A stretch of DNA of 64,000 nt from an uncultured Alphaproteobacteria bacterium (lineage in GTDB: Bacteria; Pseudomonadota; Alphaproteobacteria; RF32; CAG-239). The DNA lies in assembly GCA_944392295.1 (NCBI GenBank), contig CALXWE010000003.1, positions 83,502 to 147,501 on the forward strand, written 5' to 3'. Below the pieces are notes generated by a model. That model ran no database searches and had not been told where the DNA came from. It saw only the letters and a program-made list of their open reading frames with translations. Shown piece by piece: positions 47,833 through 64,000 of the stretch. The position numbers were made by a program, and so were the translations under genes. Position 1 is the first letter of the stretch. The number at the start of each line of letters is the position of its first letter.

Positions 47833-47907
47833 TGGGGTGTCGCCAAGTGGTAAGGCATCGGCTTTTGGTGCCGACATTCGTTGGTTCGAATCCAGCCACC
47901 CCAGCCA
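47833..47907 (+). tRNA. tRNA-Gln (anticodon UUG)
   Basis: TGGGGTGTCGCCAAGTGGTAAGGCATCGGCTTTTGGTGCCGACATTCGTTGGTTCGAATCCAGCCACCCCAGCCA is collinear with E. coli tRNA-Gln. Anticodon loop TTTTGGT. Confidence 0.92.
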
Positions 47908-48184: not shown

Positions 48185-49636
48185 ATGAATAAAATTATAA
48201 ACGCATTCCAAAACTTATTTAAATCTGGCAAGCATACTTCCTTTTTCTCTTCAGAATGGTGGAAAACGGCGACCCCACAACTACTTGAAGATGAGATTAA
48301 AAATGGGGTTAATGTTAATACCAGAAACGATGATGGTTTTACACCTCTGATGTTTGCTGCAGCCATTGCACAAAATCCAGAATTGATTAATACTCTAATA
48401 CAAGCAGGTGCTGATGTTAATGCCAAAGATAGCGAAGGTTTAACTCCTTTGATGGATGCAGCTAGCGTGAATCCTAATCCAGAAATTACTCGTGCATTAA
48501 TAAAAGCGGGAGCTGAGGTTAATAATAAAGATGGAAATACTTCAGAACCACTTATGTTGGCTATTAGAGATAATAATTCAGAAGTAATCAAAGAATTAAT
48601 TCGTTCAGGAGCTGATGTTAACATTAAGAATATACTCTATGGAACCCCTTTATTGCTGGCAATATCAAAGAATCATGGCTTAGATGTAATAAATGAACTA
48701 ATTAGAGCCGGAGCTGATGTCAATGCAATGGATGAATTTGGCCGTCTTCCATTAACAGAGGCTTTAAGAAAGAATTGTAGTCCCGAATTAATATGTGCTT
48801 TGATTGATGCTGGAGCAGATGTTAATGCTGGATATGTTAAACCTCTAGATCGGGCTATTGTAAATAAATATCCACAAGAGGTTCTTAGCACCCTTATTCA
48901 AGCTGGAGCGGAACTAAATGAAAGATATGATAATGGTGGTACTCTTTTATTCCAAGCAATAGTTGATGAAAATATATGTGCCATTAATTCACTTATTCAG
49001 GCAGGAGCAGAGGTTAATCTTAGGGATAGTGACGGGATTACACCTCTAATGTGTGCAGTAAGTAAAAACTTAGATACAGAAATAGTTACAAATTTAATTC
49101 AAGCTGGGGCAGATGTTAATGCAAAAAATGGAAATTTAGGAACACCACTTATGTATGCAATATGTAATAATCGACCGATTGAAATCATTATTACTTTAAT
49201 TAAAGCTGGGGCTGAGATAAACATTCAAGATAGTAGCGGCTTTACACCATTAATGACTGCAGCTAGTACTAATATTAATCCTCAAGTAATAGATGTATTA
49301 ATTATTTCAGGAGCTGATATTAATATTACAGGACTATTAGGTAAAAATGCTTTAATGTATGCAGCACAAAATAATCCAAATCCAGATGTTCTTTTAACTT
49401 TAATAAAGTATGGTTGTGATATTAATGCAAAGGCAGATGATGTAAATTATACACCTTTGATGTATGCTGCAAAATATAATAAGAATCCTCAAGTTTTAGA
49501 AGTATTACTCAAATGTGGAGCTGATACAAAAGAAAGAAGCGATGAAGGAAAAACAGCATTAGATTATGCAAAAGAAAATCCTAATATATACCAAACTGAT
49601 GCTTTCTGGTTGCTTAATGATAAGACATATGAGTAA
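48185..49636 (+). CDS. Ankyrin-repeat protein (~13 ANK repeats)
   Basis: 483 aa of consecutive ~33-aa units ...G.TPLM.A.......E.I..LI.AGADVNAK.... The antisense ORFs are artefacts of the repeat. Confidence 0.95.
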   Translation: MNKIINAFQNLFKSGKHTSFFSSEWWKTATPQLLEDEIKNGVNVNTRNDDGFTPLMFAAAIAQNPELINTLIQAGADVNAKDSEGLTPLMDAASVNPNPEITRALIKAGAEVNNKDGNTSEPLMLAIRDNNSEVIKELIRSGADVNIKNILYGTPLLLAISKNHGLDVINELIRAGADVNAMDEFGRLPLTEALRKNCSPELICALIDAGADVNAGYVKPLDRAIVNKYPQEVLSTLIQAGAELNERYDNGGTLLFQAIVDENICAINSLIQAGAEVNLRDSDGITPLMCAVSKNLDTEIVTNLIQAGADVNAKNGNLGTPLMYAICNNRPIEIIITLIKAGAEINIQDSSGFTPLMTAASTNINPQVIDVLIISGADINITGLLGKNALMYAAQNNPNPDVLLTLIKYGCDINAKADDVNYTPLMYAAKYNKNPQVLEVLLKCGADTKERSDEGKTALDYAKENPNIYQTDAFWLLNDKTYE

Positions 49637-50209: not shown

Positions 50210-53200
50210 ATGCATATATCTTCAACAGAATTGGAAAAATTGAGTAACACAAGACAATCACAAGAAAAATTGCCATTATTGTTAAGAAGGCTAATAACAA
50301 ACAATCTCGATGGGAAATACATTGTTAACTTAGATATTCCCGGAGGAGATAGTATTTGGAAACCAGGAGCTGATGGTTATGTACAAACCTTAGAAAATAG
50401 CATATTAGGCGAAGCTGGAATTTACCTAATTGAATGTGGACAAGATGAAAGCTATCAAACAAAATTTCAAAAAGATTTAGATAAACGTACTGAAAATCTT
50501 TCCCAAAATTCAAATAAGACGTTTGTTTTTATTACTACTCGTAAAGTTAGAAATAAAGATGCCTCAATTGCAAAGGCGCAAAAGAAAAATCCTAAAGCTA
50601 ATTTTTGGAAAAATATAAGAATATTTGATGCTGACGACATCGAAACATGGCTTGAACATGACTATGCAACAAGCGCTTGGCTTTGTGATGTTTTAGAAAA
50701 ACCATTCGATGATATATATAATTTCGAAAAGAAATGGCAAGACTGGATAAAATCAACTATTATACCCTTAGATGAAAATATTATTCTTGCAAGAAAAAAT
50801 ATATATGAAAAAGAAATAAATGACTGGCTTTTACATGATAAAGGGTTAATAGAGGTACGAGCATGTACAAAAAAAGAAAGTCTATTATATCTTCTAGCCT
50901 CGATAATGAAAATTTCATCTTTAGAAGAACGAGAAGATATTAAATCTAAAATTACAATTATTGAAGATAGAAAACAATGGAATCGAGTTGTTGAAAATGG
51001 TAACTCTAAAAAATTAATTTTGGTACCAATGTTTGATATTCCTGAGGGTATTCACACTCTTTTAGAAAAAGGATATACAATATACTTGCCTTTAGCTAAA
51101 AAAGATTCATTTCAAACCAATAAAAAACTAGATGTTGATAATATTTGCAATTACTTATTGGAGCCCATAATTGAAGCTAAATATGGGTATGAATATCAAA
51201 AGTTGATATATAAAAATTTTAGTAATAATGACATGTTGTTATTGCAAAGAATATTAAGAAATCCTAAGGCTCCTCTTCCGAAACCTATTTGGGCAAATAA
51301 AAACTATGCTAATATTTTGCTATTTTTGAGCATATTCAGCTCTTGGGATGACTTAAATAGAAAAGATATAGAACTTATTGAAAAAACTCTAAAAATACCA
51401 TACAGCGAAATCAAAAACAAATTAATCGAATTGATGAATATAGATGAAGCTCCTATACAACAAATAGGTAATATTTTTCAAGTAACAAATCCAAAATTAC
51501 TTATTGAATATTTAGGAGCCTATCTCACTAAAGAACAATTTTTTTCTTTATTAAAATCCGTTCAAGAGGTTTTAACAACAATTGATAATGAGTATTCAAA
51601 AGAAAAAGACTATTTTAATTTTGATTTTTTTCACAATAAAGCAAAATACTCAGAACAAATAAAATCATCTTCAACAAAGGGGCTAGCCTTATTTGCAAAT
51701 AATGATAATTATTTTAATTCAAATGTAAAAATCAAAGAACAAATAAATAGAGTAATCAAGGATATTTTTGAAGATTGTGATTATAAATTATGGCTTTTCT
51801 TAGGTTCTTATATGCCAATGCTATTTGAAGCATCTCCAGAAATTATGTTAACAGAAACAGATCGTATGCTAGATAACAAAGTAATCCTAGACACTATAAT
51901 AGAAGAAGGCTCCATATCTTTTGGTGGAAATTGTTATTATGCTGGTATTTTATGGGGATTAGAAAGTGTAGCATGGCTTCCAGAATACCTAAATAAGGCA
52001 ACCAGTATACTTTTAAAAATGTATAGTAATTGGGTTAACGGCTCTGGATATGCCAACTCTCCATTATCAAGTCTTCACAAAATATATTGCGCTTGGTACC
52101 CGCACACTTCTGTTGATACAGAAGATAGGAAGAAAATTCTTACAACGTTTATTAATGGTCGCAAATACAATGAAGCTCTCACAAATTTGCTAATTAAACT
52201 GCTTCCACAGCGAAATGAATCTTTGTGTAGTTCAACTGAACCAAGTTATTTAGAATATAAACGTTTAAAACTGAAAAATGCGGATGTTTGGAATATGTAT
52301 AACTTTGTTTTTGAAAAGTTATTGATATTAATGGATGAGCTAAATAATTGGGATATTTTAATTGGATGTTACTTTGATCTTTCAACAGACCAAAAACAAA
52401 AACTATATGACAAACTAAATTCATTAGATTTTAGTACCATTCAAGATGATAAAAAAATAGAAATACAGAAAGCAATTTTATTAAAAACATACTGGTTTGA
52501 TGAGTTTGGCAAAAATAAAGAATTTTCTAAAGAAGATAAGAACCTAATTGAGAGCTTAAAAACCATAATTTCAAAAATTAATTTTTCAGATAAACATAAG
52601 CAATATGTGGCCTTATTTACAAGCTACGACTATAAGCATAATGATACTATTTATGCTAAGAAGTTAAAAGATCTTTTAGATGATGAAGGAATAGAGGGAA
52701 TAATTCATCTTATAGGACATATTGAAGATAGCTATGGTTTTAGACTGATAGATGCGTTAAAATCGCAAACATTTTCTGAAGAACAAATAAAAGAAATATT
52801 GTCATACTTAGGACAAAATGAAAAAATAGATAAAATTTTATTTAATTTTATCGGACAATATTTTTGGAATAATGAAATGCCGTTTATCAATCAATATTGG
52901 AATACGAATTGGAAGGATAGCATTAAGCAAAATATCTTACTGAATTTGAGTTCATCTCCAGAATTATGGAAATGGATTGAAACAAATCATTTAGAGAATT
53001 TATACTGGAGCAAGAAAATATTCAGAGGAGATTTTTCTGCCTCAAAACTTGATTTTATTATACCTAGATTAAAACAATATAATAATACGGATTCTCTTTT
53101 AGAAATAGTTTTTTACAATAAAAATACTATAAACACAAAGGAAATTGTTGATGCTTTAATACTGTATACCGGAGAGCATCATTTACAACTAAGTAGCTAT

Positions 53201-53911
53201 TATATAACAGAATTATTTGATATCTTATATGCTAATAATGTTGAACAAGATTTGTTAATTAAACTTGAAATGAAATATCTAAAGATTTTAGATCATAATG
53301 GTATCCCAAGAGCAATAAAAAAAGAACTTTCGACCCCTGCTTCTTCGTTTTTTAGTGATATTGTAAAGATGTTATATGGAGAAGAAAGTTTAGATGATGA
53401 TAAGCGTGAAAAAATAAGACAACAATCTAAGAATGAGAATGACGAAAGAACAAAAGAATTAGCTATTTCACTCATGATAAAAATGGATAAGAATTTTATA
53501 TTTGAAAATAAAAGAGATATAAAATCTTGGTTTGAGAATAATAAAACCAATCTGCAAAAATTAAATCGTTTGCAGTATGGACTCTCTTTTATTGGGCAAA
53601 TGTTCGGACAGAGTCCTAATGATGCCAGTGATAATATTTGGCCGCTTAAGGAAATAAGAGAAATAATTGAAGCTGAAGAAAGTGAGATTTTAGAAAAAGG
53701 AATACTTATTGGAAAACATAACTCTATAGGTATTCGCGCTATAACTCCTGATGCTAAAGATATGTGGACCGCATATAATGAATATAAGGAGTATGCGAAA
53801 ATAGTAAGATTTCAATATCCTAGAACATCAAATCTTCTTGAAAAGATTGCAGCGGGGTACAAAGAATTAGCGGAAAGTGATGAGAATTCACACAAACAAA
53901 GATATATGTAA
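50210..53911 (+). CDS. Orphan 1233-aa protein: ~170-aa N-terminal globular domain plus a long all-helical repeat-like body; no P-loop seen
   Basis: Uninterrupted ORF with AAAGGAAA RBS, its own upstream AT-rich region and its own terminator. I found no Walker A, helicase, methylase or known nuclease signature with confidence. Confidence 0.8.
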   Translation: MHISSTELEKLSNTRQSQEKLPLLLRRLITNNLDGKYIVNLDIPGGDSIWKPGADGYVQTLENSILGEAGIYLIECGQDESYQTKFQKDLDKRTENLSQNSNKTFVFITTRKVRNKDASIAKAQKKNPKANFWKNIRIFDADDIETWLEHDYATSAWLCDVLEKPFDDIYNFEKKWQDWIKSTIIPLDENIILARKNIYEKEINDWLLHDKGLIEVRACTKKESLLYLLASIMKISSLEEREDIKSKITIIEDRKQWNRVVENGNSKKLILVPMFDIPEGIHTLLEKGYTIYLPLAKKDSFQTNKKLDVDNICNYLLEPIIEAKYGYEYQKLIYKNFSNNDMLLLQRILRNPKAPLPKPIWANKNYANILLFLSIFSSWDDLNRKDIELIEKTLKIPYSEIKNKLIELMNIDEAPIQQIGNIFQVTNPKLLIEYLGAYLTKEQFFSLLKSVQEVLTTIDNEYSKEKDYFNFDFFHNKAKYSEQIKSSSTKGLALFANNDNYFNSNVKIKEQINRVIKDIFEDCDYKLWLFLGSYMPMLFEASPEIMLTETDRMLDNKVILDTIIEEGSISFGGNCYYAGILWGLESVAWLPEYLNKATSILLKMYSNWVNGSGYANSPLSSLHKIYCAWYPHTSVDTEDRKKILTTFINGRKYNEALTNLLIKLLPQRNESLCSSTEPSYLEYKRLKLKNADVWNMYNFVFEKLLILMDELNNWDILIGCYFDLSTDQKQKLYDKLNSLDFSTIQDDKKIEIQKAILLKTYWFDEFGKNKEFSKEDKNLIESLKTIISKINFSDKHKQYVALFTSYDYKHNDTIYAKKLKDLLDDEGIEGIIHLIGHIEDSYGFRLIDALKSQTFSEEQIKEILSYLGQNEKIDKILFNFIGQYFWNNEMPFINQYWNTNWKDSIKQNILLNLSSSPELWKWIETNHLENLYWSKKIFRGDFSASKLDFIIPRLKQYNNTDSLLEIVFYNKNTINTKEIVDALILYTGEHHLQLSSYYITELFDILYANNVEQDLLIKLEMKYLKILDHNGIPRAIKKELSTPASSFFSDIVKMLYGEESLDDDKREKIRQQSKNENDERTKELAISLMIKMDKNFIFENKRDIKSWFENNKTNLQKLNRLQYGLSFIGQMFGQSPNDASDNIWPLKEIREIIEAEESEILEKGILIGKHNSIGIRAITPDAKDMWTAYNEYKEYAKIVRFQYPRTSNLLEKIAAGYKELAESDENSHKQRYM

Positions 53912-54034: not shown

Positions 54035-54111
54035 ACATAATGTCATTAGTGACAATAAGTATCTAAAACCTTAACTTGATATTTATAAACTATGCTTATA
54101 ATATTTTAAAT

Positions 54112-55263
54112 ATGATTACGGCAGATGAAATAAAAGCCAAATATTGGGCTTTGGAAGTATTAGCTTCCAACAACCAAGCGGATATGGGTAACATTTCCGG
54201 CTCTTTAGGCACGTCCAAAATTGACTTAAACCCACACCAAATAGATGCCGCATTATTTGCCCTAAAATCTCCTTTATCTCAAGGCGTTATTTTAGCAGAT
54301 GAAGTAGGTTTAGGAAAAACTATTGAAGCCGGAATTGTTATATCTGAATATTTTTCTCGGGGTTTTACATCTATTTTGGTTGTTGCTCCAGCCAGTTTAT
54401 GCCAACAATGGCAAACAGAAATGCAAGAAAAGTTTGATCTACCAGCTCAAATTATTGATACCAAAATATATAAGGACTCCTTAAAAGAAGAAAAAGACGT
54501 CTTTGCCTTTAAGGGAATTACAATTTGTTCATATAACTGTGTTGTTCAACTAAAATCATCCTTCAAACACCATAATTGGGACTTAGTTGTTATTGATGAA
54601 GCCCACAAACTTCGTAATTTCTATAAAGGAAGCACAAAAATTGCCGATGGTATTAATGAAGCTTTTCTTGGAAAAAAGAAATTACTATTAACAGCAACCC
54701 CAATCCAAAACTCCTTAATGGATATATATTCTTTGGTTACCATCATTGATCCTAGCATCTTAGGCAATGAATATGCTTTTATGGAAAATTATATGCATTC
54801 CGAACAGCATCACAATGAATTAAAAAAACGTTTGGCGTGTGTGTTGCACCGAACATTAAGAAAAGATGTTTTAGAATACATAAAATACACCAACAGAGAA
54901 GCAATGACTGTTGCATTCAACCCAACAAAAGCTGAAGAAGAGTTATACAATGAGGTTTCTGCCTATATTCAAGATATTTCTAAAGTAGCTATTACCACAC
55001 GTTTCCGCACTCTGATTGTTTTGATGATAAGAAAATTGATGAGTTCTTCAACCGCCGCGGTTAAAGGAACACTTGAAGGTTTAATGAACCGTTTGGAACA
55101 AATGGAAAAAAGCGGCAAAGAAACTGATATTTTTTCTTCTTTTAACTTTTTCCGCTGTCCAAGTAGATTTACACAAGATATGGATTTAGAAGCATTGGAA
55201 AAATTTCTTGAAATTATATTGATCACGTCTTGGATATCCATTGCCATAAACCTACAGACATAA
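54112..55263 (+). pseudogene. Truncated SNF2-family helicase: N-terminal ATPase lobe only, C-terminal lobe missing
   Basis: MITADEIKAKYW...; motif I ADEVGLGKT, motif II VVIDEAHKLRN, motif III LLLTATPIQNS. The frame ends at 55263 with no helicase-C motifs (IV-VI) anywhere downstream on this strand. Confidence 0.75.
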
Positions 55264-55381
55264 AACATTCCCCGATATATAATTAGAACTTGAATTGGTG
55301 ACAAAATAAATACTGTTTATCTTTATATGGTCACGAAAAGCATATTTTCCACCGCATTGTATAGCAAAATAAAAAATATTT

Positions 55382-55545
55382 AAAATTGTAAATTCCATTT
55401 AACAAAAACCTCTTTTCCATAGATTTTGTTAATTCAAATTTACAAAAACTCAAAAAATACAAAATTGTAAATTCTGATTTACAAAAATTTATGCGGTGGT
55501 TCTAAAATAATAGTTTCATTTTTTAGTGATAATAGTTTCATTTTT
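55382..55545. repeat. Cluster of operator/iteron-like repeats in a non-coding gap
   Basis: aaaattgtaaattccatttaacaaaaa (55382-55408), aattcaaatttacaaaaa (55431-55448), aaaattgtaaattctgatttacaaaaa (55461-55487; contains palindrome TGTAAAT-tctg-ATTTACA), then ataatagtttcattttt twice (55507-55523, 55529-55545). Confidence 0.8.
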
Positions 55546-55616
55546 GCAACAATTATACAATGAGTACAATATTGAAAAACTCAGAAAGACAATACAATTT
55601 TTTATATTTCTAAAAT

Positions 55617-56642
55617 TTAATTTGTTATTTTATTACTATTAAATAAATTTAATTGGTTATCTTCAGCAAAATCATAATCACTATCAAAATGTAAAGTTTC
55701 TGGAATTTTATCGAATATTCTATCATTGTATTGATATACTTTCTTAGCAGAAATAATTTGTCGCTTTTTCATATTTTCATAATGAATGGTTCTGTATTCA
55801 AAGTATGCCACCATTTCATCATCTTGATTTGTTGATTTTATAGGGCATTGACCTTCCATTATTATTTTTTTGAAATATATATCATCCATATTAAATCTAA
55901 TTTTTTTGTTTTGTGTAATACTTTTTCCAATCCACGGATCATCACTATCTACGATTGTAGGATTTGTTATAATGATCTTTTGTAGTTTATAATGTATATC
56001 ATCATTTACATGAACTTTAGCCATATACGATGTAAATTCATTCCTTTTAACAGGAAATGAATGTTCTTTAAGATATCCTATTCCTTTAATTCCATTATTA
56101 GGTTGAAGACAAGTTTCATAAAATTTATTTTTAGCAATAAAAGAATTAGGAAAATCTTGTGGATGGATTTTATTTTTATTTAAGGTTTCTGTATTGGAAA
56201 ATAAAAACATTTTTATTATGTACAAATAAAGATAAAAAGCAATCTTAGTATTTAAAGCAAAACTCTCAGTGTCATTTTTAATTTTTTTTAACTCATCAAC
56301 AAATTCATCCCATACTATTCCAAGTATTTTTTCAGCCCAGTCTTTAATATCTCTATCACTCACTTTTTTTAAGATGAAGTCAATTATAAATTTTCCAACA
56401 ATGATTTCTGCAGGATGATTTTGAATACTATAATTTAGTAGCTCAATAAAACCGCCATGTTCAGCAGGAATAATATAGATTTCTGTTTTTAATTTGTTAT
56501 TGAATAATTTTTTGTTCATTTCTCTGGATATACCCAGAACAGAAGTTGCTGTATTAACAAATACATCTACAGGGATTCTGTGTTCATCCGTATCAAAATG
56601 AATACATAAATCATCAGAAAGTTTACTTTTGGTCAAATTCAT
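55617..56642 (-). CDS. Hypothetical protein (341 aa)
   Basis: Long AT-rich ORF, last gene of a three-ORF minus-strand unit divergent from the recombinase. No family recognised. Confidence 0.6.
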   Translation of the reverse strand: MNLTKSKLSDDLCIHFDTDEHRIPVDVFVNTATSVLGISREMNKKLFNNKLKTEIYIIPAEHGGFIELLNYSIQNHPAEIIVGKFIIDFILKKVSDRDIKDWAEKILGIVWDEFVDELKKIKNDTESFALNTKIAFYLYLYIIKMFLFSNTETLNKNKIHPQDFPNSFIAKNKFYETCLQPNNGIKGIGYLKEHSFPVKRNEFTSYMAKVHVNDDIHYKLQKIIITNPTIVDSDDPWIGKSITQNKKIRFNMDDIYFKKIIMEGQCPIKSTNQDDEMVAYFEYRTIHYENMKKRQIISAKKVYQYNDRIFDKIPETLHFDSDYDFAEDNQLNLFNSNKITN

Positions 56643-56733
56643 TGCTAAATTTCCACATTTTTCCGTAGTGTAACGTATTTTACCTTATAGTGCAATTTTA
56701 ATTTATTGTTCTTTAACAAAATTCATAAATGCA

Positions 56734-57333
56734 TTACTTATATTCCTCATCATAAATAGAAATGATATAATCTACCACTGTTTCTTTGTAAATTATCGGT
56801 GTTGATTTAGGGATCATCTTATCTTTTTTGTATTTTTGTTCCTGCTCTTTGTTACGAAAGTTAATCCAAGCATATTCCTGGTTCTTCTTGATATTGTTAT
56901 CTGAGATAATTCTATCGATGAGTCGCTTGCCAATTTGTGGTTTCTTTAGCTTAATTTGTTCAGCAACTTGTGTATACGTCAATGGGTAATTGGTAAGTTT
57001 ATCAACTTCTACCTTTTTAACCACTGTTTTAGGTGTTTCATCGGTTTCATCATAACTAATCAATTGTGTAATATCACTTTTTGTTTTCGATGTAGCTTCC
57101 GTCCCATAATAAACCTTAATTTTGAAAGCATTGTTACTTGCAAACTCACTTTTATCAATACTTTCGTAGATAGCTTTAATTTCAGGAGGCCATGTAGATA
57201 AATCCATATCTATTACTTGTTCTTTTTGCAATCCAACAAATTGCAATGCCAAAGATAAGTTGTTTGAGAGGGGAAGATTGGATTTTGAGATAACTTTTAA
57301 CTTCTTTATCTGTTGCTGCTGTAATTTCATCAT
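56734..57333 (-). CDS. Hypothetical protein (199 aa); 5' end overlaps the upstream ORF in another frame
   Basis: ORF MMKLQQQQIKKLKVISKSNLPLS.... It overlaps ORF 57182..57514 by 152 nt. Confidence 0.5.
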   Translation of the reverse strand: MMKLQQQQIKKLKVISKSNLPLSNNLSLALQFVGLQKEQVIDMDLSTWPPEIKAIYESIDKSEFASNNAFKIKVYYGTEATSKTKSDITQLISYDETDETPKTVVKKVEVDKLTNYPLTYTQVAEQIKLKKPQIGKRLIDRIISDNNIKKNQEYAWINFRNKEQEQKYKKDKMIPKSTPIIYKETVVDYIISIYDEEYK

Positions 57334-57514
57334 TTTTATCTATTTTGGATATTCTGCCTAAATTTGTGGTTTGTTTACGACCTTGATTAACAATATGAAC
57401 AATATCTTGAGGAATATAACCTTGTTGTAAAAGCCCTTTAACCAAACACTTTTCTTCTGGAGTTAAACCTCCATCTTTTGATTTTTTGCGATTTGGTTTA
57501 ATATTCTGTAACAT
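57182..57514 (-). CDS. Small putative HTH protein (110 aa as read; C-terminal ~30 aa look out of frame)
   Basis: ...GGLTPEEKCLVKGLLQQGYIPQDIVHIVNQGRKQTTNLGRISKI... resembles a short HTH. The tail ...LIFGIAICWIAKRTSNRYGFIYMAS looks like non-coding read-through. Confidence 0.45.
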   Translation of the reverse strand: MLQNIKPNRKKSKDGGLTPEEKCLVKGLLQQGYIPQDIVHIVNQGRKQTTNLGRISKIDKNDEITAATDKEVKSYLKIQSSPLKQLIFGIAICWIAKRTSNRYGFIYMAS

Positions 57515-57642
57515 AGTATACTCTCTTTACGCTTAATTAAGTTTTAGATTTACTGTATCTGCTATTAATTTTACCATTTAATTTATTGATGATATATTGT
57601 CTTTCTTTTATCGTCAAATCTTATTTTATTATAGGAGAAAAT

Positions 57643-58293
57643 ATGATTTATGGATATATAAGAGTCAGTACAGACAAACAAACACTTGAAAACCAAAAAT
57701 TTGAAATCCAGAATTTTTGCAGACGAGAACGCTTACAAATAGATGATTGGATAGAAGAAACCATATCTGGAACGAAAGCATATAATAAAAGAGAGTTGGG
57801 AAAATTATTACACCACATTAAGAAAAATGATCTTATAATCTGTGCTGAATTATCTAGATTGGGACGCAATTTATTCATGATCATGGAAATCTTAAATATA
57901 TGCATGCGAAAAGAATGTCGGGTATGGACTATAAAAGATAATTATAGATTAGGAGACGATATTCAATCGAAAGTACTAGCATTTGCTTTTGGTTTATCAG
58001 CTGAAATTGAAAGAAATTTAATATCTCAAAGAACAAAAGAAGCTTTGGCTAGACTAAGATCTGAAGGAAAAAACATAGGTAGGATCAAAGGAACTAGGAA
58101 TAAGGAATATAATAAAAAATGCACTAAAAAACATGATATTATACTGCAATTACTTGATATTGGTGTATCTGTACCTCAGATAGCAAAGGAAATACATGTT
58201 GCAAAAGGTACTCTGTATCGTTATCTTGCCTACACTGGTATTAAGCTTCCTACTTGTAATACCAGTAAACGATGGGAACGTGGAATATATTAG
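57643..58293 (+). CDS. Serine recombinase (resolvase/invertase family)
   Basis: Start set to ATG 57643 (AGGAGA RBS). MIYGYIRVSTDKQTLENQ... with the catalytic Ser in YIRVST. ...LSRLGRN... and a C-terminal HTH (...IAKEIHVAKGTLYRYL). Confidence 0.9.
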   Translation: MIYGYIRVSTDKQTLENQKFEIQNFCRRERLQIDDWIEETISGTKAYNKRELGKLLHHIKKNDLIICAELSRLGRNLFMIMEILNICMRKECRVWTIKDNYRLGDDIQSKVLAFAFGLSAEIERNLISQRTKEALARLRSEGKNIGRIKGTRNKEYNKKCTKKHDIILQLLDIGVSVPQIAKEIHVAKGTLYRYLAYTGIKLPTCNTSKRWERGIY

Positions 58294-58304
58294 TCCTGAA
58301 ATAG

Positions 58305-58322
58305 CGTCCATTTTTTGAAGAC
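58305..58322. repeat. Inverted repeat A, left copy (18 bp, encodes VHFLKT)
   Basis: cgtccattttttgaagac is the exact reverse complement of 59189-59206. Confidence 0.95.
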
Positions 58323-58358
58323 AGATCCTAAAGCACGTTACCAAGGATATTCGTTCTT

Positions 58359-58381
58359 TTTTAGGGAGGGTTTTTGTTGGA
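58359..58381. repeat. Inverted repeat B, left copy (23 bp, encodes FREGFCW)
   Basis: ttttagggagggtttttgttgga is the exact reverse complement of 59112-59134. An imperfect extension reaches ~34 bp (58353-58386). Confidence 0.95.
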
Positions 58382-58731
58382 ATAATGTTCTTAATCCAAA
58401 TGCAAGATTATTAAAAACCAAATTAAAACTACCTACAGTTAACGATGTCGGTTCAATGTCTTTAATGTCAACAATTCCCAATATCCCAAATTACTACTTT
58501 GTTATCTTACTTAATTCAAATTTATTATTTGATTACTATAGAGAGTTCATCAATTGCACTGTAAATATACAGATCAATGACATCCGCCAATTACCGATAG
58601 TTATTCCATCAGAAGAGCAATTAAGTGAATATAACATGCTCTTTCAAAGCATTTTGCACTTAAAACAACAAAATGCTCCAGACACAGACATATCAAAAAT
58701 AGAATATAAATTAGATCAAACGGTTTTAAAA

Positions 58732-61700
58732 TTATACCAAATATAGTTTTTGTACGGCTTGATTTAATTGCGCTTGTACCTCTGATAGAAGTTTTTCGGC
58801 TGTTTCATAATTAATTTTATGGTTGAAAAATTTCTTTTTAATATCCACGGCTTTATTAAAGATATTGTGAAAATATTCTAATTGTTCGTTAGATGGAATG
58901 ATGATTGGTAATTGTCTAGCATCGTTAATCTGAAAAGTTTGCGTGTTATTAATAAAATCATCAACATATTCACTTATAAAACTAGAATTTATAAGTGATA
59001 CAATATAGTATTCTGGTGCCAACCTAGATATTCCGTACATACTCATACTTTTTACATCGTTGATGCTTTTATCCTTTTTACGGCATTTAAGATATGTTGT
59101 ATTTATATCACTCCAACAAAAACCCTCCCTAAAATTGAACTGAGGATTCCTGACAACAGGCATACCAGCCCCTTTTTTACCAGAGTTAGTCTTCAAAAAA
59201 TGGACGTTTTCTTTAGACCATGCAATTGCAAAAGGTGTCTCCAAATACCACCTGTTACCATCTTTGTCTCCTTTGTCATATGGTACATAGTATTTTTTAG
59301 AAACATCAATTCCATTTTCTTTTTCATCTTCTGTTAATTCATCAACATTGGCTATTTCGTCATCATCAATTAATCTGTATATATAGCCTTGTCCGAAAAT
59401 ATCTCTTCCATATTTTTCTTTAAGATGATCAAAGAGTTCAATTATTTCATTTTCAGATGAATTATCTATATATTCTGATGGAGACATATATTTTAATTCT
59501 GCACTTGGTATATGGTACTTTTTAACAGCTTCTTCCAATTTTTTAGGACGAGACTGTATAATATTGATTGCCCATTTAGTTGATTTTCTAACAGCTATAT
59601 ATTTACCATTATTTGCAGTTGCTAAACCCTGACCTCCTTCTGTTAGACAACCAAGTAAAGCAATATCCCCAGGTTGTAAGCTATTTCTGTATTTAGTTAA
59701 TTCTTCTTGATTCTGCGATATTTTTTTACTGGTTTCAATTTTACTCCACCAAGTATCGTATAATTTCTTAACTTTTTCTCCGTATTTCTCATATATGCGA
59801 AGATTAAGGTCTGTGGGTTTAAAAATAACAGCGTTTTGTGTATTAAGATAGATATTTTGTGCTATTTGATACATTTCAGGACGTTCTAGGTCTTGTGTTC
59901 CGTCCAGAAAATCTATCTTATGTTTTTCTCCCATTTTATAAGCTTCATCATACATAAATTGAGCAGCTTTATTACATCTATGGTTAGTCCAATTATTAAT
60001 GATGATCTTCTGAATTTTACTATCAAAAGATTTTATATTATTTTGTATTGATGTAACGCAAGTATCAACCATTGCTGCTTCAAAAGGATTTGCTGTATCA
60101 AATATAAAATTTATTTTTTGAGATAGAAGCAAATTTCTTAAATTTCTTTTTGTTTGTGTTGTCCAAAAGGTTTTCGGAGTAATATATGTTAGAATGCCGT
60201 TGTTATTAAGTGACGAATATCCCTTGAAGAAAAATAAGTTATAAGTATCATCTGAAAAACCAAATTCTTTTTCATACAAAACTTTATCGTTTGCAGCCAC
60301 TCCTTTAGTTGATATATATGGAGGATTACCTATAACAATATCAAAACCTCCATTCATAAAAACATCTGCAAAGAACAACTTCCATGGAAAAAAGTTACGA
60401 TGTTTGTTATTCTGAGCAAAATCACGAATAGTTTGTTCTGCTTTATCCCATTGTATACCTCCTTGTTTGGCTTTTTCTTCTACTTTGCTTTTGACCAGAT
60501 TAACAATTTCTTGTTCAATTTTATTACGTATCTCTTGTTTTTCAGTATCGTGAGAAACTTTTATATATTGATACATCAGATTGTTAATGTTGGTTATAAT
60601 ATTGTCCGACTGAGTACCAAAATAATCAAAATCTAACTGAACATTCGTTGGTTTATAATCTTCTACAATTTCATCAAAGTCAATTCCTTCATAGCTCGTA
60701 ATCAAAGAATTACCTTGCATAACTTTGTAATCAAGGTTAGGCAATGGCTTGATGTTAGATACATCTTCTTCATCAACAATCAAAGAAAGCCAAAATCTCA
60801 ACTTTGCAATTTCCACCGCACCATCATCTAAATCCACACCATACAAATTGTTTTCAATGATTTCACGTTTGATTTGATATGCTGTTTTATTTTCAACTCC
60901 CAGTGCCAAACGGGCACGTACAATTTCATTCATCATACCGACAGGAAATGCACCTGAACCAATGGCTGGATCGCAGATTTTAACATCTTTAAGAGCTTGA
61001 TTGATTTTGACTGCGTTTTCTTTAATAGAAGACGGCAAATCTTCATTTATACCACGATTTGAATTGGTATATGTCGATTCACCTAACTTGATAAATGTGC
61101 TAATATCTTCTTTTGATACGATTTCTTCAAATTTTTCCAACTTTAAATCTGTTTGTTTTACTTTTTTCTTAGCAAACAATACATCTTGCTTGGCTTCAGA
61201 TGGAGTTAGTTTTTGTGTATTTACGGCATTATAAAGGTAGTTAATCAAAGACTCCTGACACATATAGTGAACGATTTCACGAGGTGTATAAAAAGCACCA
61301 TTTCCTTTACGTTCGTTTTCAGGAAGTAGGTTTTCAAATACTTTACCTAGCATTTCAGGATCAATAGCCACTTCTTTTTCAAGTGGTTCATCCTCTTTTA
61401 CGGTAAAGTTATATAGGTCAAACACATCAAAAATTTCTTTGAAGACTGCATTATCAATTGTTAAGTCTGTTTGAGCGTAACCATAACCATTGATAGGTTC
61501 AAACAAACCACCATTAAGGAATGGAATACGGCAATTCAATGGAGCAAAATTATCATTTTCATTTCCACGGTCACGTGCCAAAGCCCTGTAAAACAAAGGC
61601 TCTAGGATATCATTAAAGAAATTATCATATTTAACATATTTTTTATCAAACAAATTACGCAAAAAGCGTTTATCACCAGAACCCCATGTTTTTCCTGTTT

Positions 61701-62499
61701 CTACACCCAACCATCCTTTTTTCTGCACAAAATAAAGAAAAACCAGCTGTCCTAAGGTTTTCTTTGCAAAGTCATCAATATTGATGTCATGTTCATTAAA
61801 GTCGTTGTGTATCTTTTTGTCATAGTTATAAATTCTTTTAAGCTCATCACGCAAGCGAATGTATAATTTTTTATACTCATAGAAGAATTCTTTGGATACC
61901 TTCTCAATATCAAAAGCTTCAACAAGATCTTCCAATGTTATCTGTTTACCACTACTGGCTTTACTGAGACAGTTAAATAATTGTTTTTGTGCTGTATGTA
62001 TATATTCATTTTCACCTACCAAAAATGAAAAACGTTTTGCAGGTGTTAATTCTTTTTCTATGATACGCTTTTGTTTCCCATTCTCTAGTGTGATTATTTG
62101 ACTTTTATAATCCATTTTAACAAAAGAAAATCGCCAATCTTTTGTATCTTCAGAAATAAAAGCAACTAACGCAGCATCTCGTTTTATATCACCAAACGCA
62201 CCATTTAAGTAACGTGCCACAAAATTACGTTGCATAGCACGTGCATGTTCAATACTGTTGTTTCTTTTAAGTTTTACTTCCAAAACATCGATAATCTTCT
62301 CAAAACCATCATTATAAACGTATTTGCCAACCCTGTAATAACTCTGAATGTAATCCTTGAATTGTGTAGGAATTTGAACATGAGTTGTCCCTCGCTCTTG
62401 AATTCCTGTCAAAAGTTCTCTGGTAAAACGTGTGAACTTATCTCGATTGTAGGCTTGTCCAAATGTTTCTCTGATTATTGTTTCGTTTAGATTACTCAT
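58732..62499 (-). CDS. Eco57I/COG1002-type (PglX/DrmMI-like) N6-adenine DNA methyltransferase, 1255 aa
   Basis: ...GAFYTPREIVHYM..., motif I ...ICDPAIGSGAFPV..., motif IV ...IVIGNPPYIS.... The N-terminal region ...AMQRNFVARYL...AALVAF...WRFSFVK... is typical of this family. The start lies 4 nt after the helicase stop. Confidence 0.88.
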   Translation of the reverse strand: MSNLNETIIRETFGQAYNRDKFTRFTRELLTGIQERGTTHVQIPTQFKDYIQSYYRVGKYVYNDGFEKIIDVLEVKLKRNNSIEHARAMQRNFVARYLNGAFGDIKRDAALVAFISEDTKDWRFSFVKMDYKSQIITLENGKQKRIIEKELTPAKRFSFLVGENEYIHTAQKQLFNCLSKASSGKQITLEDLVEAFDIEKVSKEFFYEYKKLYIRLRDELKRIYNYDKKIHNDFNEHDINIDDFAKKTLGQLVFLYFVQKKGWLGVETGKTWGSGDKRFLRNLFDKKYVKYDNFFNDILEPLFYRALARDRGNENDNFAPLNCRIPFLNGGLFEPINGYGYAQTDLTIDNAVFKEIFDVFDLYNFTVKEDEPLEKEVAIDPEMLGKVFENLLPENERKGNGAFYTPREIVHYMCQESLINYLYNAVNTQKLTPSEAKQDVLFAKKKVKQTDLKLEKFEEIVSKEDISTFIKLGESTYTNSNRGINEDLPSSIKENAVKINQALKDVKICDPAIGSGAFPVGMMNEIVRARLALGVENKTAYQIKREIIENNLYGVDLDDGAVEIAKLRFWLSLIVDEEDVSNIKPLPNLDYKVMQGNSLITSYEGIDFDEIVEDYKPTNVQLDFDYFGTQSDNIITNINNLMYQYIKVSHDTEKQEIRNKIEQEIVNLVKSKVEEKAKQGGIQWDKAEQTIRDFAQNNKHRNFFPWKLFFADVFMNGGFDIVIGNPPYISTKGVAANDKVLYEKEFGFSDDTYNLFFFKGYSSLNNNGILTYITPKTFWTTQTKRNLRNLLLSQKINFIFDTANPFEAAMVDTCVTSIQNNIKSFDSKIQKIIINNWTNHRCNKAAQFMYDEAYKMGEKHKIDFLDGTQDLERPEMYQIAQNIYLNTQNAVIFKPTDLNLRIYEKYGEKVKKLYDTWWSKIETSKKISQNQEELTKYRNSLQPGDIALLGCLTEGGQGLATANNGKYIAVRKSTKWAINIIQSRPKKLEEAVKKYHIPSAELKYMSPSEYIDNSSENEIIELFDHLKEKYGRDIFGQGYIYRLIDDDEIANVDELTEDEKENGIDVSKKYYVPYDKGDKDGNRWYLETPFAIAWSKENVHFLKTNSGKKGAGMPVVRNPQFNFREGFCWSDINTTYLKCRKKDKSINDVKSMSMYGISRLAPEYYIVSLINSSFISEYVDDFINNTQTFQINDARQLPIIIPSNEQLEYFHNIFNKAVDIKKKFFNHKINYETAEKLLSEVQAQLNQAVQKLYLV
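59112..59134. repeat. Inverted repeat B, right copy (inside the active methyltransferase gene)
   Basis: tccaacaaaaaccctccctaaaa is the reverse complement of 58359-58381. Confidence 0.95.
59189..59206. repeat. Inverted repeat A, right copy (inside the active methyltransferase gene)
   Basis: gtcttcaaaaaatggacg is the reverse complement of 58305-58322. Confidence 0.95.
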
Positions 62500-62502
62500 A
62501 TT

Positions 62503-64000
62503 TTAGTCCTTTGCGTATAAAAATTCAGATAATACAATGATTTTCTTGGTATGTTCGAGTTTCTGCGCTGTTTCATCCGATTCTAAATAGATGTCGGATA
62601 CTTCAGATCGGATTTTATTAAGGATTTTCAAATTATCAAACTCTTTATTCATAAAATCTGATATTTTCTTGCTTATAGCATGTGGAATAATGCCACTGTT
62701 GTATGATTGTAAAAGTTTTTGGATATATTCAATATCACTCTCTGTGTATCTTTTTTCTTCACGAAGTGCTGCACGTAAATATTCCATCACTTTTCTGTGA
62801 TTCGAGCGTCCACGGGTTGTTGTAACCATTTCACTGTCATCTGCCAGTGGAGTATCAAATAATTGTTTATTTTGTTTCAAATACTCAAAATAATCATGAG
62901 GTAATGCTTTTTGAACTTCATTTTTATTGCATTCAAAGTATTTTATAGCTTCATCAAAAGAAATTTCCATTGATTGTAAACCCTGGGTAATACAAAACTT
63001 CTTCAATTTACCTTTGCGGAAAAATGTTATCAAGCTATCATTGTTGATTTTTGAAGCAACTTTTGCAGTACGGATCTTTTTAGGTAAATCCACAATTGAC
63101 TTAAATAGATTTGGTTCTTTATCTCTAACATCACGGATAACAGCTAAATATTTTAATTCAGGACTCTCTTCAGTATCTTCAAACATCCCTTTGTTTGTTA
63201 AATTCTCGTATATCTGTTCACCACGTAAGTTAAATGATCCAACTTCTTCTGTATCACTCAAGTATTTTGCGTCTTCTCCTAAAGCATCATGGAAGGCTTG
63301 TAACTTGGATATGATGTTTGCTTTCAATGATATTTCTTTTTCAGCTTTTGCTGTTGGGAAGAAGTTATAGATATATATTTTGCTGTGTTCTGTACCAATA
63401 CGGTTTACACGACCAACTCTCTGTAATACTCTTGTTGGGTTCCATGGTAAGTCATAATTAACTACAATATTCGAACGATGCAAGTTGATACCTTCAGCCA
63501 AAACATCTGTTGTTATCAAAATTCTTATGTTATCAGATGGCAATTTGTTGTTAGGATCAAAATTCTCTTTGATCATTTCCTTTATGGTATTACTCTTTGC
63601 TGCCGAATAGAAAAGGACTTTGTTAGGATATAAGGCATTCAGATCTTTATATAAATCATCACCAGTTTCAGCAGATTCTGTAAAAATAATCAATTTACTA
63701 TTCTTCAGCTGCTTATCAGTCTTCAATTGCTGAATAAATTCTTCCTTCTTTACATCTTTAGGAATATTACACCATGATGAGTATATTTCTTTTAACAAAT
63801 CCAAATCAGAGTACAAATCCTCAATGAATTCTTCCTGGAACTCTTCCTTTGTATATTTTTCCACATTTTTCTCAGAACTATCAAGTAATTTATCCAGTTC
63901 TTCAGTATTATCATTGTCCAAATAGTCAAAGACATTAACATCTTTACTTATATAAATTATACCAGAATTATACATATCAATATACTTTTGGTATGATTCT
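62503..64000 (-). CDS. SNF2-family helicase, C-terminal part (the frame stays open to the window edge; the N-terminus lies beyond 64000)
   Basis: Helicase-C motifs ...LIIFTES... (IV), ...ILITTDVLAEGINL... (V), ...NPTRVLQRVGRVNRIG (VI). Codons upstream of the track's ATG (ESYQKYID) carry no stop. Confidence 0.88.
   Translation of the reverse strand, partial: ESYQKYIDMYNSGIIYISKDVNVFDYLDNDNTEELDKLLDSSEKNVEKYTKEEFQEEFIEDLYSDLDLLKEIYSSWCNIPKDVKKEEFIQQLKTDKQLKNSKLIIFTESAETGDDLYKDLNALYPNKVLFYSAAKSNTIKEMIKENFDPNNKLPSDNIRILITTDVLAEGINLHRSNIVVNYDLPWNPTRVLQRVGRVNRIGTEHSKIYIYNFFPTAKAEKEISLKANIISKLQAFHDALGEDAKYLSDTEEVGSFNLRGEQIYENLTNKGMFEDTEESPELKYLAVIRDVRDKEPNLFKSIVDLPKKIRTAKVASKINNDSLITFFRKGKLKKFCITQGLQSMEISFDEAIKYFECNKNEVQKALPHDYFEYLKQNKQLFDTPLADDSEMVTTTRGRSNHRKVMEYLRAALREEKRYTESDIEYIQKLLQSYNSGIIPHAISKKISDFMNKEFDNLKILNKIRSEVSDIYLESDETAQKLEHTKKIIVLSEFLYAKD

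Follow-up and report, generated by a model that had tools for sequence, protein, structure and literature searches.

Programmed inversions that alter genes have been identified systematically, with loci confirmed by long reads (Milman, Yelin & Kishony, NAR 2023, PMC9881135). The loci described there include Cj0031-like Type II restriction-modification (RM) enzymes whose neighbour carries phospholipase-D (PLD) and SNF helicase domains, as in Bacteroides ovatus (CP083813.1, 5322008-5329826; CP044495.1), where the inversion target has homologues in three phyla, as well as the BREX type 1 pglX loci of Lacticaseibacillus rhamnosus (NC_013198.1) and Brevibacterium casei (PMC9881135). Type I hsdS shufflons are known from the pneumococcal ivr/SpnD39III locus, Mycoplasma pulmonis and Bacteroides fragilis (PMC7672463, PMC7641763). 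As quoted in PMC8375218 from Coyne et al. 2003, the Mpi invertase of B. fragilis inverts promoter segments flanked by ARACGTTCGTN at many distant loci. Here we analyzed a 64,000-nucleotide stretch of DNA from an uncultured alphaproteobacterium (contig CALXWE010000003.1, positions 83,502 to 147,501, hereafter the window), in which a cassette flanked by inverted repeats lies at the 3′ end of a gene encoding a 1255-aa DNA methyltransferase (MTase). In the explanation that fits best, and which we hold to be likely, the locus is a two-gene RM-like defence module containing a shufflon-type switch that makes it phase-variable. Such a switch had been put forward in an initial annotation of the sequence, and the finding of inverted states in three assemblies supports the view that it is real, phase-variable and active in natural populations.

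Anatomy of the cassette and the adjacent invertase

The MTase gene occupies positions 58732-62499 of the minus strand and encodes a gamma-class N6-adenine enzyme made of an N-terminal domain, an Eco57I-type MTase domain (Pfam Eco57I, E 1e-33; NPPY motif) and a C-terminal recognition region, with a match to the PADLOC model REase_MTase_IIG over residues 7-823 (E 2e-179). Facing its 3′ end on the plus strand, and overlapping it tail to tail by 15 nt, lies a silent, start-less alternative 3′ cassette (58300-58746) which is free of stops, consists of a spacer and a tail of the type that we call T2, and is 39% identical to the last ~155 residues of the MTase (BLASTP E 3e-34). Two pairs of inverted repeats connect this copy with the expressed gene. 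The left arm of inverted repeat A (IR-A), at 58305-58322 (CGTCCATTTTTTGAAGAC), encodes VHFLKT in the silent copy and is complementary at 18 of 18 positions to the right arm, the reverse complement of CGTCCATTTTTTGAAGAC, which lies at 59189-59206 within the expressed MTase gene and corresponds to residues 1099-1104 of the protein. The left arm of inverted repeat B (IR-B), at 58359-58381, encodes FREGFCW, and its 23 exact bases, complementary to the right arm at 59112-59134 within the expressed gene (about residues 1122-1129), are part of a 34-nt match that is 88% complementary. From IR-A to IR-B, the silent copy carries a 12-codon alternative spacer of 36 nt (DPKARYQGYSFF; 58323-58358, plus strand) and the expressed gene an 18-codon spacer of 54 nt (NSGKKGAGMPVVRNPQFN; 59135-59188, minus strand), the latter being the family consensus. 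The core invertible segment between the arms of IR-B (58382-59111) contains both tails, arranged tail to tail. When inversion was simulated in silico at IR-A, at IR-B or at both, the MTase gene yielded in-frame proteins of 1244, 1250 and 1249 aa, respectively.

The repeats are beyond chance, because shuffled sequence did not produce their like and because codon identity is concentrated in them. In 300 dinucleotide-preserving shuffles of positions 58000-59500, scored for exact inverted repeats with at least five G/C, the longest repeat reached 14 nt (mean 9.1), compared with the 23 and 18 nt observed, and residues identical between the two copies are encoded by the identical codon in 12 of 13 cases inside the repeats versus 23 of 49 outside. 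A scan for promoters and terminators around the cassette returned nothing exceeding shuffle expectation. Both repeat types display a T-run followed by G (CCATTTTTTGAAG, GGGTTTTTGTTGG), in the window arms as well as in three of the related loci described below (L011, L013 and L028). This pattern resembles the half-sites of Hin and Gin (GGTTTTTGATAA), but the sequence is under coding constraint as well, and we treat the similarity as a lead only.

Next to the cassette, with its stop codon 11 nt short of IR-A, is a gene for a serine DNA invertase (57643-58293, plus strand) of 216 aa, or 234 aa if translation starts at an alternative ATG at 57589. The protein carries the YIRVSTDKQ motif, a Pfam Resolvase domain (E 1e-33) and a C-terminal HTH_7 domain, and it scores 321.7 bits against the NCBIfam model NF009949, "master DNA invertase Mpi family," for which the equivalog cutoff is 272. 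We infer that this adjacent enzyme catalyzes the inversions. The anatomy described so far bears out the initial annotation, which had read from the sequence an 18-bp and a 23-bp inverted repeat, spacers of 36 and 54 nt, a start-less diverged second copy with a 15-nt overlap, the in-frame nature of the predicted chimeras and a serine recombinase 11 nt from IR-A: the arms are exact, the second copy is an open frame, the simulated proteins are uninterrupted, and the recombinase in addition passes the Mpi model. The recombinase open reading frame (ORF) and the silent cassette are in the same reading frame, separated by two stops (TAG at 58291-58293 and TGA at 58297-58299); this may be a coincidence.

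Inverted states in natural populations

Contigs carrying the locus, comprising the source contig and sister contigs, were retrieved by exact-protein look-ups and then aligned to the window, and the evidence on orientation consists of assembled contigs from different samples. Five contigs from five different samples or runs (L001, L002, L003, L004 and L091) show the window orientation across IR-B with 99.9-100% identity. Three others, also from three different samples and 99.7-100% identical to the window, are inverted at IR-B. The first of these (L006, ERZ24773394) follows the window from 55076 to 58381, continues from 59134 back to 58353, and resumes from 59112 to 60488, with 99.9-100% identity in the flanks and 99.7% in the inverted segment. 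The other two (L007, ERZ28614836; L092, ERZ28614361) have the same junction, and thus the same crossover point in IR-B, at 100% identity. The 148-aa silent ORF expected of the IR-B-inverted state was likewise found on exact look-up. The initial annotation had proposed to look for both orientations of the segment; in assemblies each was found, in different samples. Two further contigs stop at the edge of a left arm, one at the end of IR-A (L005, ERZ28614228, position 58322) and one at the end of IR-B (L008, ERZ24773558, BRZ_SS, position 58381), and one of the contigs in window orientation (L003) likewise ends at an edge of IR-B, at 58360. Such stops are how an assembly graph behaves when the sequence past a repeat is heterogeneous.

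Recombination at the second repeat was found in a pair of sister-strain contigs. These 47-kb contigs (L009 and L010), which are 99.4% identical, differ by a reciprocal exchange of the spacer between IR-A and IR-B, such that the spacer of the expressed gene in one is that of the silent copy in the other, with the tails unmoved. This is the net outcome of one inversion at IR-A and one at IR-B, and therefore both repeats recombine. We considered whether the inverted repeats could have misled assembly and so produced the alternative orientation artificially, given that all the evidence comes from assemblies and that short-read assemblers can mis-join at repeats. Repeats of 18 and 23 bp are, however, short beside the usual k-mers of final assembly graphs, the same junction recurs in three assemblies that represent different samples and two projects, and the reciprocal spacer swap lies on 47-kb contigs, so that we give this explanation almost no credence.

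Consistent with recombination at these sites, five combinations of spacer and tail are found in the expressed position among cluster mates and close homologues. In a related strain, the window's silent tail type T2 is in the expressed position (P0012), and in a lineage only 64% identical, two proteins (P0013 and P0014) are ~95% identical up to the FREGxCW peptide and ~45% identical after it. Decay of the plus-strand copy in related genomes, which the initial annotation had named as an argument against switching, is not what we observed: the silent copy is intact in distant genomes, and T2 is expressed in P0012.

We then screened GTDB with one genome for each species and retained the 80 best loci. 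A silent cassette arranged tail to tail with the methylase gene is present in two loci of Bacteroidales (L011 and L032), one of Prevotellaceae (L028), one of Treponema (L013) and one of a Bacillota metagenome-assembled genome (L014), and a partial one in Dialister (L017), while about ten other full-length homologues are without a cassette. A Mpi-like invertase, 63-78% identical to that of the window, adjoins the cassette in three of these loci (L011, L013 and L028). When exact repeats of at least 12 nt were sought, all five loci with a complete cassette proved to carry them, with lengths of 14-28 nt; they fall on both peptides in the same three loci and on F[RK]EGFCW only, in the form FKEGFCW, in L014 and L032, and the partial cassette of Dialister showed none. 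The arms are identical within a locus even though the loci differ from one another, with H, Q or R in VxFLKT and R or K in FxEGFCW changing together in the two copies, and this covariation points to selection on arm identity. Moreover, both spacer alleles (NSGKKGxGMPVVRNPQF and DPKARYQGY) were present in every related locus examined, and tail types are common to several phyla: tails of the same type are 48-70% identical, compared with 32-43% for the partner tails of one locus, with the exception of L009 (54%). At the level of sequence, this pattern is as expected of exchangeable recognition alleles. In the Prevotellaceae locus (L028, 8119-8151), we also noticed a third inverted repeat, of 15 nt, on the extreme 3′ ends (VCELY) of methylase and cassette, with 3 nt between its arms, which may be a hairpin, a terminator or a further crossover site.

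These data also bear on a different reading, in which the observed states go back to rare historical inversions, or to gene conversion between strains by homologous recombination, and the recombinase serves the mobility of the island on which the locus lies. That the two orientations come from different samples would fit this reading, as would the position of the locus on a low-GC island beside a tRNA-Gln gene and the presence of a second resolvase gene upstream of the helicase (see below). Against it, the sequences flanking the segment are 99.7-100% identical in the two orientations, and contig ends coincide exactly with repeat edges. Exact identity of the arms is kept, with covariation, in four phyla, in three of which a Mpi-type invertase is adjacent, and invertases of the Mpi family are 16-fold enriched beside inversion targets (PMC9881135). 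RecA-dependent recombination generally works on longer repeats than these of 18-23 bp, which also speaks against such an origin. We therefore regard a purely historical origin as quite improbable, and an active inversion switch as the better account of the contigs.

The exchanged part of the methyltransferase and its partner

The part of the MTase that is exchanged appears to belong to its recognition domain. An AlphaFold model of residues 481-1255 (pLDDT 88) matches BrxX/PglX, CamA, M.BseCI, MmeI, M.TaqI and LlaBIII, and a model of residues 1056-1255 alone (pLDDT 87) still matches BrxX/PglX (E 2e-5), the M.BseCI-DNA complex (E 5e-4) and M.TaqI (E 0.09). Since M.BseCI and M.TaqI consist of just two domains, one for catalysis and one for recognition, the matches to them must fall on the recognition domain. 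In a full-length homologue (P0058), the Pfam domain TaqI_C (PF12950), the TaqI-like C-terminal specificity domain, scores 32.4 bits (cutoff 26.5) at 1030-1138, a range that corresponds to residues 1090-1199 of the window MTase in the family alignment; weaker TaqI_C matches in two other homologues (P0025 and P0047) map to the same residues. The arm of IR-A covers residues 1099-1104 and that of IR-B about 1122-1129, so that the invertible part amounts to ~70-90% of the TaqI_C-type domain, followed by a terminal two-helix hairpin. According to these models, the swapped part has a target-recognition fold of the TaqI/BseCI type, and the motif that is methylated, and restricted, would thus most likely change upon switching. 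Searches of the PDB, with a single sequence and with a profile, reached the MTase domain and did not reach the C terminus.

A change of specificity is not the only conceivable effect of a switch at this place. Switching could be real and leave specificity as it is, with the tails altering instead the coupling to the partner, oligomerization or activity, for example between a modification-only and a restriction-proficient form. In favour of this, the last ~55 residues, a two-helix hairpin, lie outside the TaqI_C region, the most variable region of the family (residues 821-880) is upstream of the swapped part, and for BrxX a C-terminal domain past the target-recognition domain (TRD) has been proposed to contact partner proteins and to bind DNA non-specifically (PMC11842806). 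This alternative is opposed by the extent of the swapped part, which covers most of the TaqI_C-type domain, by the matches of the C-terminal model alone to the recognition domains of M.BseCI and M.TaqI, and by the discrete tail types found across phyla, as with TRD alleles; we rate it as unlikely, and favour a switch that affects recognition. Because variability in the family alignment peaks at residues 821-880, just past the catalytic domain, it is probable that the tail determines only a portion of the motif. As a separate observation, several proteins among P0015-P0023 are 85-87% identical to the window MTase over its first ~65% and then continue into an unrelated C-terminal third with a clear TaqI_C domain. 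To judge from these alignments, the whole post-catalytic region seems to be swapped between close relatives, besides the local inversion switch.

The initial annotation had called the enzyme a helicase-associated type IIG-like methylase, which proved right. The upstream gene, whose stop overlaps the start of the MTase gene, encodes a 1071-aa PLD(HKD)-nuclease/SNF2-helicase; its 3′ part lies at 62503-64000 on the minus strand and its 5′ part past the window end, and in the contig that contains the full gene (L001, 4386-7601) the protein comprises PLDc_2, SNF2-rel_dom and Helicase_C domains. Its best PADLOC match is the candidate family "HKD+Snf2" (E 2e-50), and it does not reach the cutoffs of the DISARM DrmD models or of the PLD anti-phage family. 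We rejected an assignment to BREX or DISARM, as the companion genes are absent at the locus and the model scores are under the cutoffs. For BREX type 1, there is no brxA, brxB, brxC, pglZ or brxL among the neighbours, and the PglX model NF033452 gives 132.6 bits against a cutoff of 500. For DISARM class 1, the DrmD models give 140 and 74 bits against cutoffs of 610 and 950, the matches to DrmMI are weak only, and no DUF1998 or DrmA gene is found at the locus. Scans with Pfam, NCBIfam and PADLOC gave no match to the HsdS, HsdM or HsdR families in the locus. The module is thus best described as a two-gene RM-like system of a nuclease-helicase and a methyltransferase, and we infer that it restricts DNA.

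We also considered whether an N-terminal SNF2 half (54076-55263, plus strand) and a Helicase_C ORF (62503-63975, minus strand) could be one gene split by inversion, an idea based on the DrmD_b profile, which they match over ranges 23-339 and 340-802. It was rejected because the upstream gene is an intact 1071-aa PLD-SNF2 gene that runs off the window end. The 395-aa ORF at 54076-55263 contains the N-terminal SNF2 lobe only (DISARM_DrmD_b 23-339, 324 bits) and no Helicase_C, is unchanged in all sister contigs, and looks like a separate fragment, the truncated remnant of a second helicase-based system.

Based on these elements, we propose the following model. In a module whose first gene encodes a PLD-nuclease/SNF2-helicase and whose second gene encodes a large Eco57I-type adenine MTase, the adjacent Mpi-family invertase would recombine either of the two in-frame repeats, IR-A (VHFLKT) or IR-B (FREGFCW), that are common to the expressed 3′ end and to a promoter-less, start-less inverted copy. 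Inversion at IR-B would exchange the last ~125 residues, inversion at IR-A the same residues together with the 12- versus 18-residue loop, and inversion at both sites in turn the loop alone, such that one silent cassette would give rise to four full-length enzymes. Switching would alter part of the motif that is methylated and, via the nuclease-helicase partner, restricted, producing subpopulations with different defence specificities and methylomes.

Several results weigh against this model and temper it. No contig from the window's own strain is inverted at IR-A alone, and the exact look-up of the three predicted full-length chimeric MTases returned no match in the collection. The silent ORFs predicted for the state inverted at IR-A alone and for that inverted at both repeats gave no match on exact look-up either. 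That both orientations coexist in one clonal population is suggested by assemblies of different samples and by the contig breaks. As for the enzyme, IR-A only loosely resembles the B. fragilis Mpi site: its MTase-side arm with flank (AAACGTCCAT) agrees with ARACGTTCGTN at ~8 of the first 10 positions by eye, and IR-B, also compared by eye, does not match this consensus. On the side of specificity, the silent cassette has a weak Pfam TaqI_C match (E 0.044) and the active tail no Pfam match, the fold matches are whole-model scores without residue-level alignment, and the variability peak at 821-880 is not in the swapped tail.

A bolder extension is that the nested sites act as a 2 x 2 combinatorial switch, in which the loop would read one part of the motif and the tail another, giving four specificities, and that the whole unit of nuclease-helicase, methylase, cassette and invertase moves between phyla. 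We put this forward tentatively and with some doubt; the module is seen here in Pseudomonadota, and related loci are found in Bacteroidota, Spirochaetota and Bacillota.

Genomic setting and relation to described systems

The window is chromosomal, as it contains the genes for MetRS, XseA, the CCA-adding enzyme and TrkH, and its MetRS shares 86% identity with that of an Alphaproteobacteria metagenome-assembled genome. The GC content is ~0.38-0.40 up to about 48 kb and drops to 0.28-0.32 over the remainder of the window. As this drop begins right after a tRNA-Gln gene (47833-47907), the module appears to lie on an acquired low-GC island. Beyond the species, its closest relatives are found in gut-type Bacteroidales, Treponema and Bacillota. 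Also located on the island are orphan ORFs, a gene for a 483-aa ankyrin-repeat protein (48185-49636) and a 1233-aa ORF (50210-53911, plus strand) that directly precedes the SNF2 fragment and has no match in Pfam, NCBIfam or PADLOC. Past the window end and upstream of the helicase, the longer contig (L001, 1-4200) encodes a second resolvase (184 aa), a helix-turn-helix regulator, an SNase-like protein and a DUF3768 protein, which hint at a mobile element; the sister strain (L009 and L010) likewise has a DUF3768 gene next to the module.

The locus is of interest as a natural switch caught in both states that alters the recognition domain of a defence MTase. Switches of this kind make phage resistance more diverse and, as phasevarions, can alter gene expression that depends on methylation. 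With two repeats, one cassette and four products, and with matched tail types in distant phyla, it offers an accessible system in which to assign TRD residues to the bases that they read across the large uncharacterized Eco57I/PLD-SNF2 family.

In comparison with known systems, the locus is closest in design to the Cj0031-like inversion loci. As in these, inversion acts on a large Eco57I-domain MTase whose gene directly follows a coding sequence with domains of the phospholipase-D and SNF helicase types, and a recombinase gene lies next to the target. The repeats overlap the target coding sequence as well as a partial, inverted paralogue, several phyla contain homologues with inverted repeats, and variants with inverted segments are found in sequence data, here across samples. 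The link to the Cj0031-like target consists of the shared Pfam Eco57I domain and of homologue names of the form "Eco57I ... domain-containing protein," and the B. ovatus protein of 1122 aa is likened to the 1255-aa protein of the window by architecture and Eco57I domain. What sets the window locus apart is its host, an uncultured alphaproteobacterium, and perhaps its two nested in-frame sites, which would yield four isoforms from one cassette.

The other systems are related more distantly. The initial annotation had pointed to inversion at a BREX pglX locus, a precedent which is real (PMC9881135). As in the BREX loci, inversion swaps part of a large gamma-class adenine MTase that gives defence its specificity, and BrxX/PglX are the best structural matches of the window MTase; in L. 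rhamnosus pglX, however, a middle segment is swapped via unstable intermediates with one inversion, whereas in the window every state is full-length. The hsdS shufflons follow the same logic, with inverted repeats placed in conserved parts of the coding sequence, partial copies that are silent, a recombinase of their own and an exchange of recognition domains that gives several methylation specificities, but they act on a separate S subunit, whereas here the recognition domain is the MTase's own C terminus, without HsdM, HsdR or HsdS genes. The window recombinase resembles B. fragilis Mpi in that it passes the NCBIfam equivalog model for that family, and unlike Mpi, which acts on distant promoters, it is local to repeats inside a coding sequence. 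Taken together, the locus is a further member of the class established by Milman et al. 2023 and no new category, and to this class it adds both orientations in public assemblies, two nested repeats that both recombine and give four in-frame isoforms, tail types that extend across phyla and an alphaproteobacterial host.

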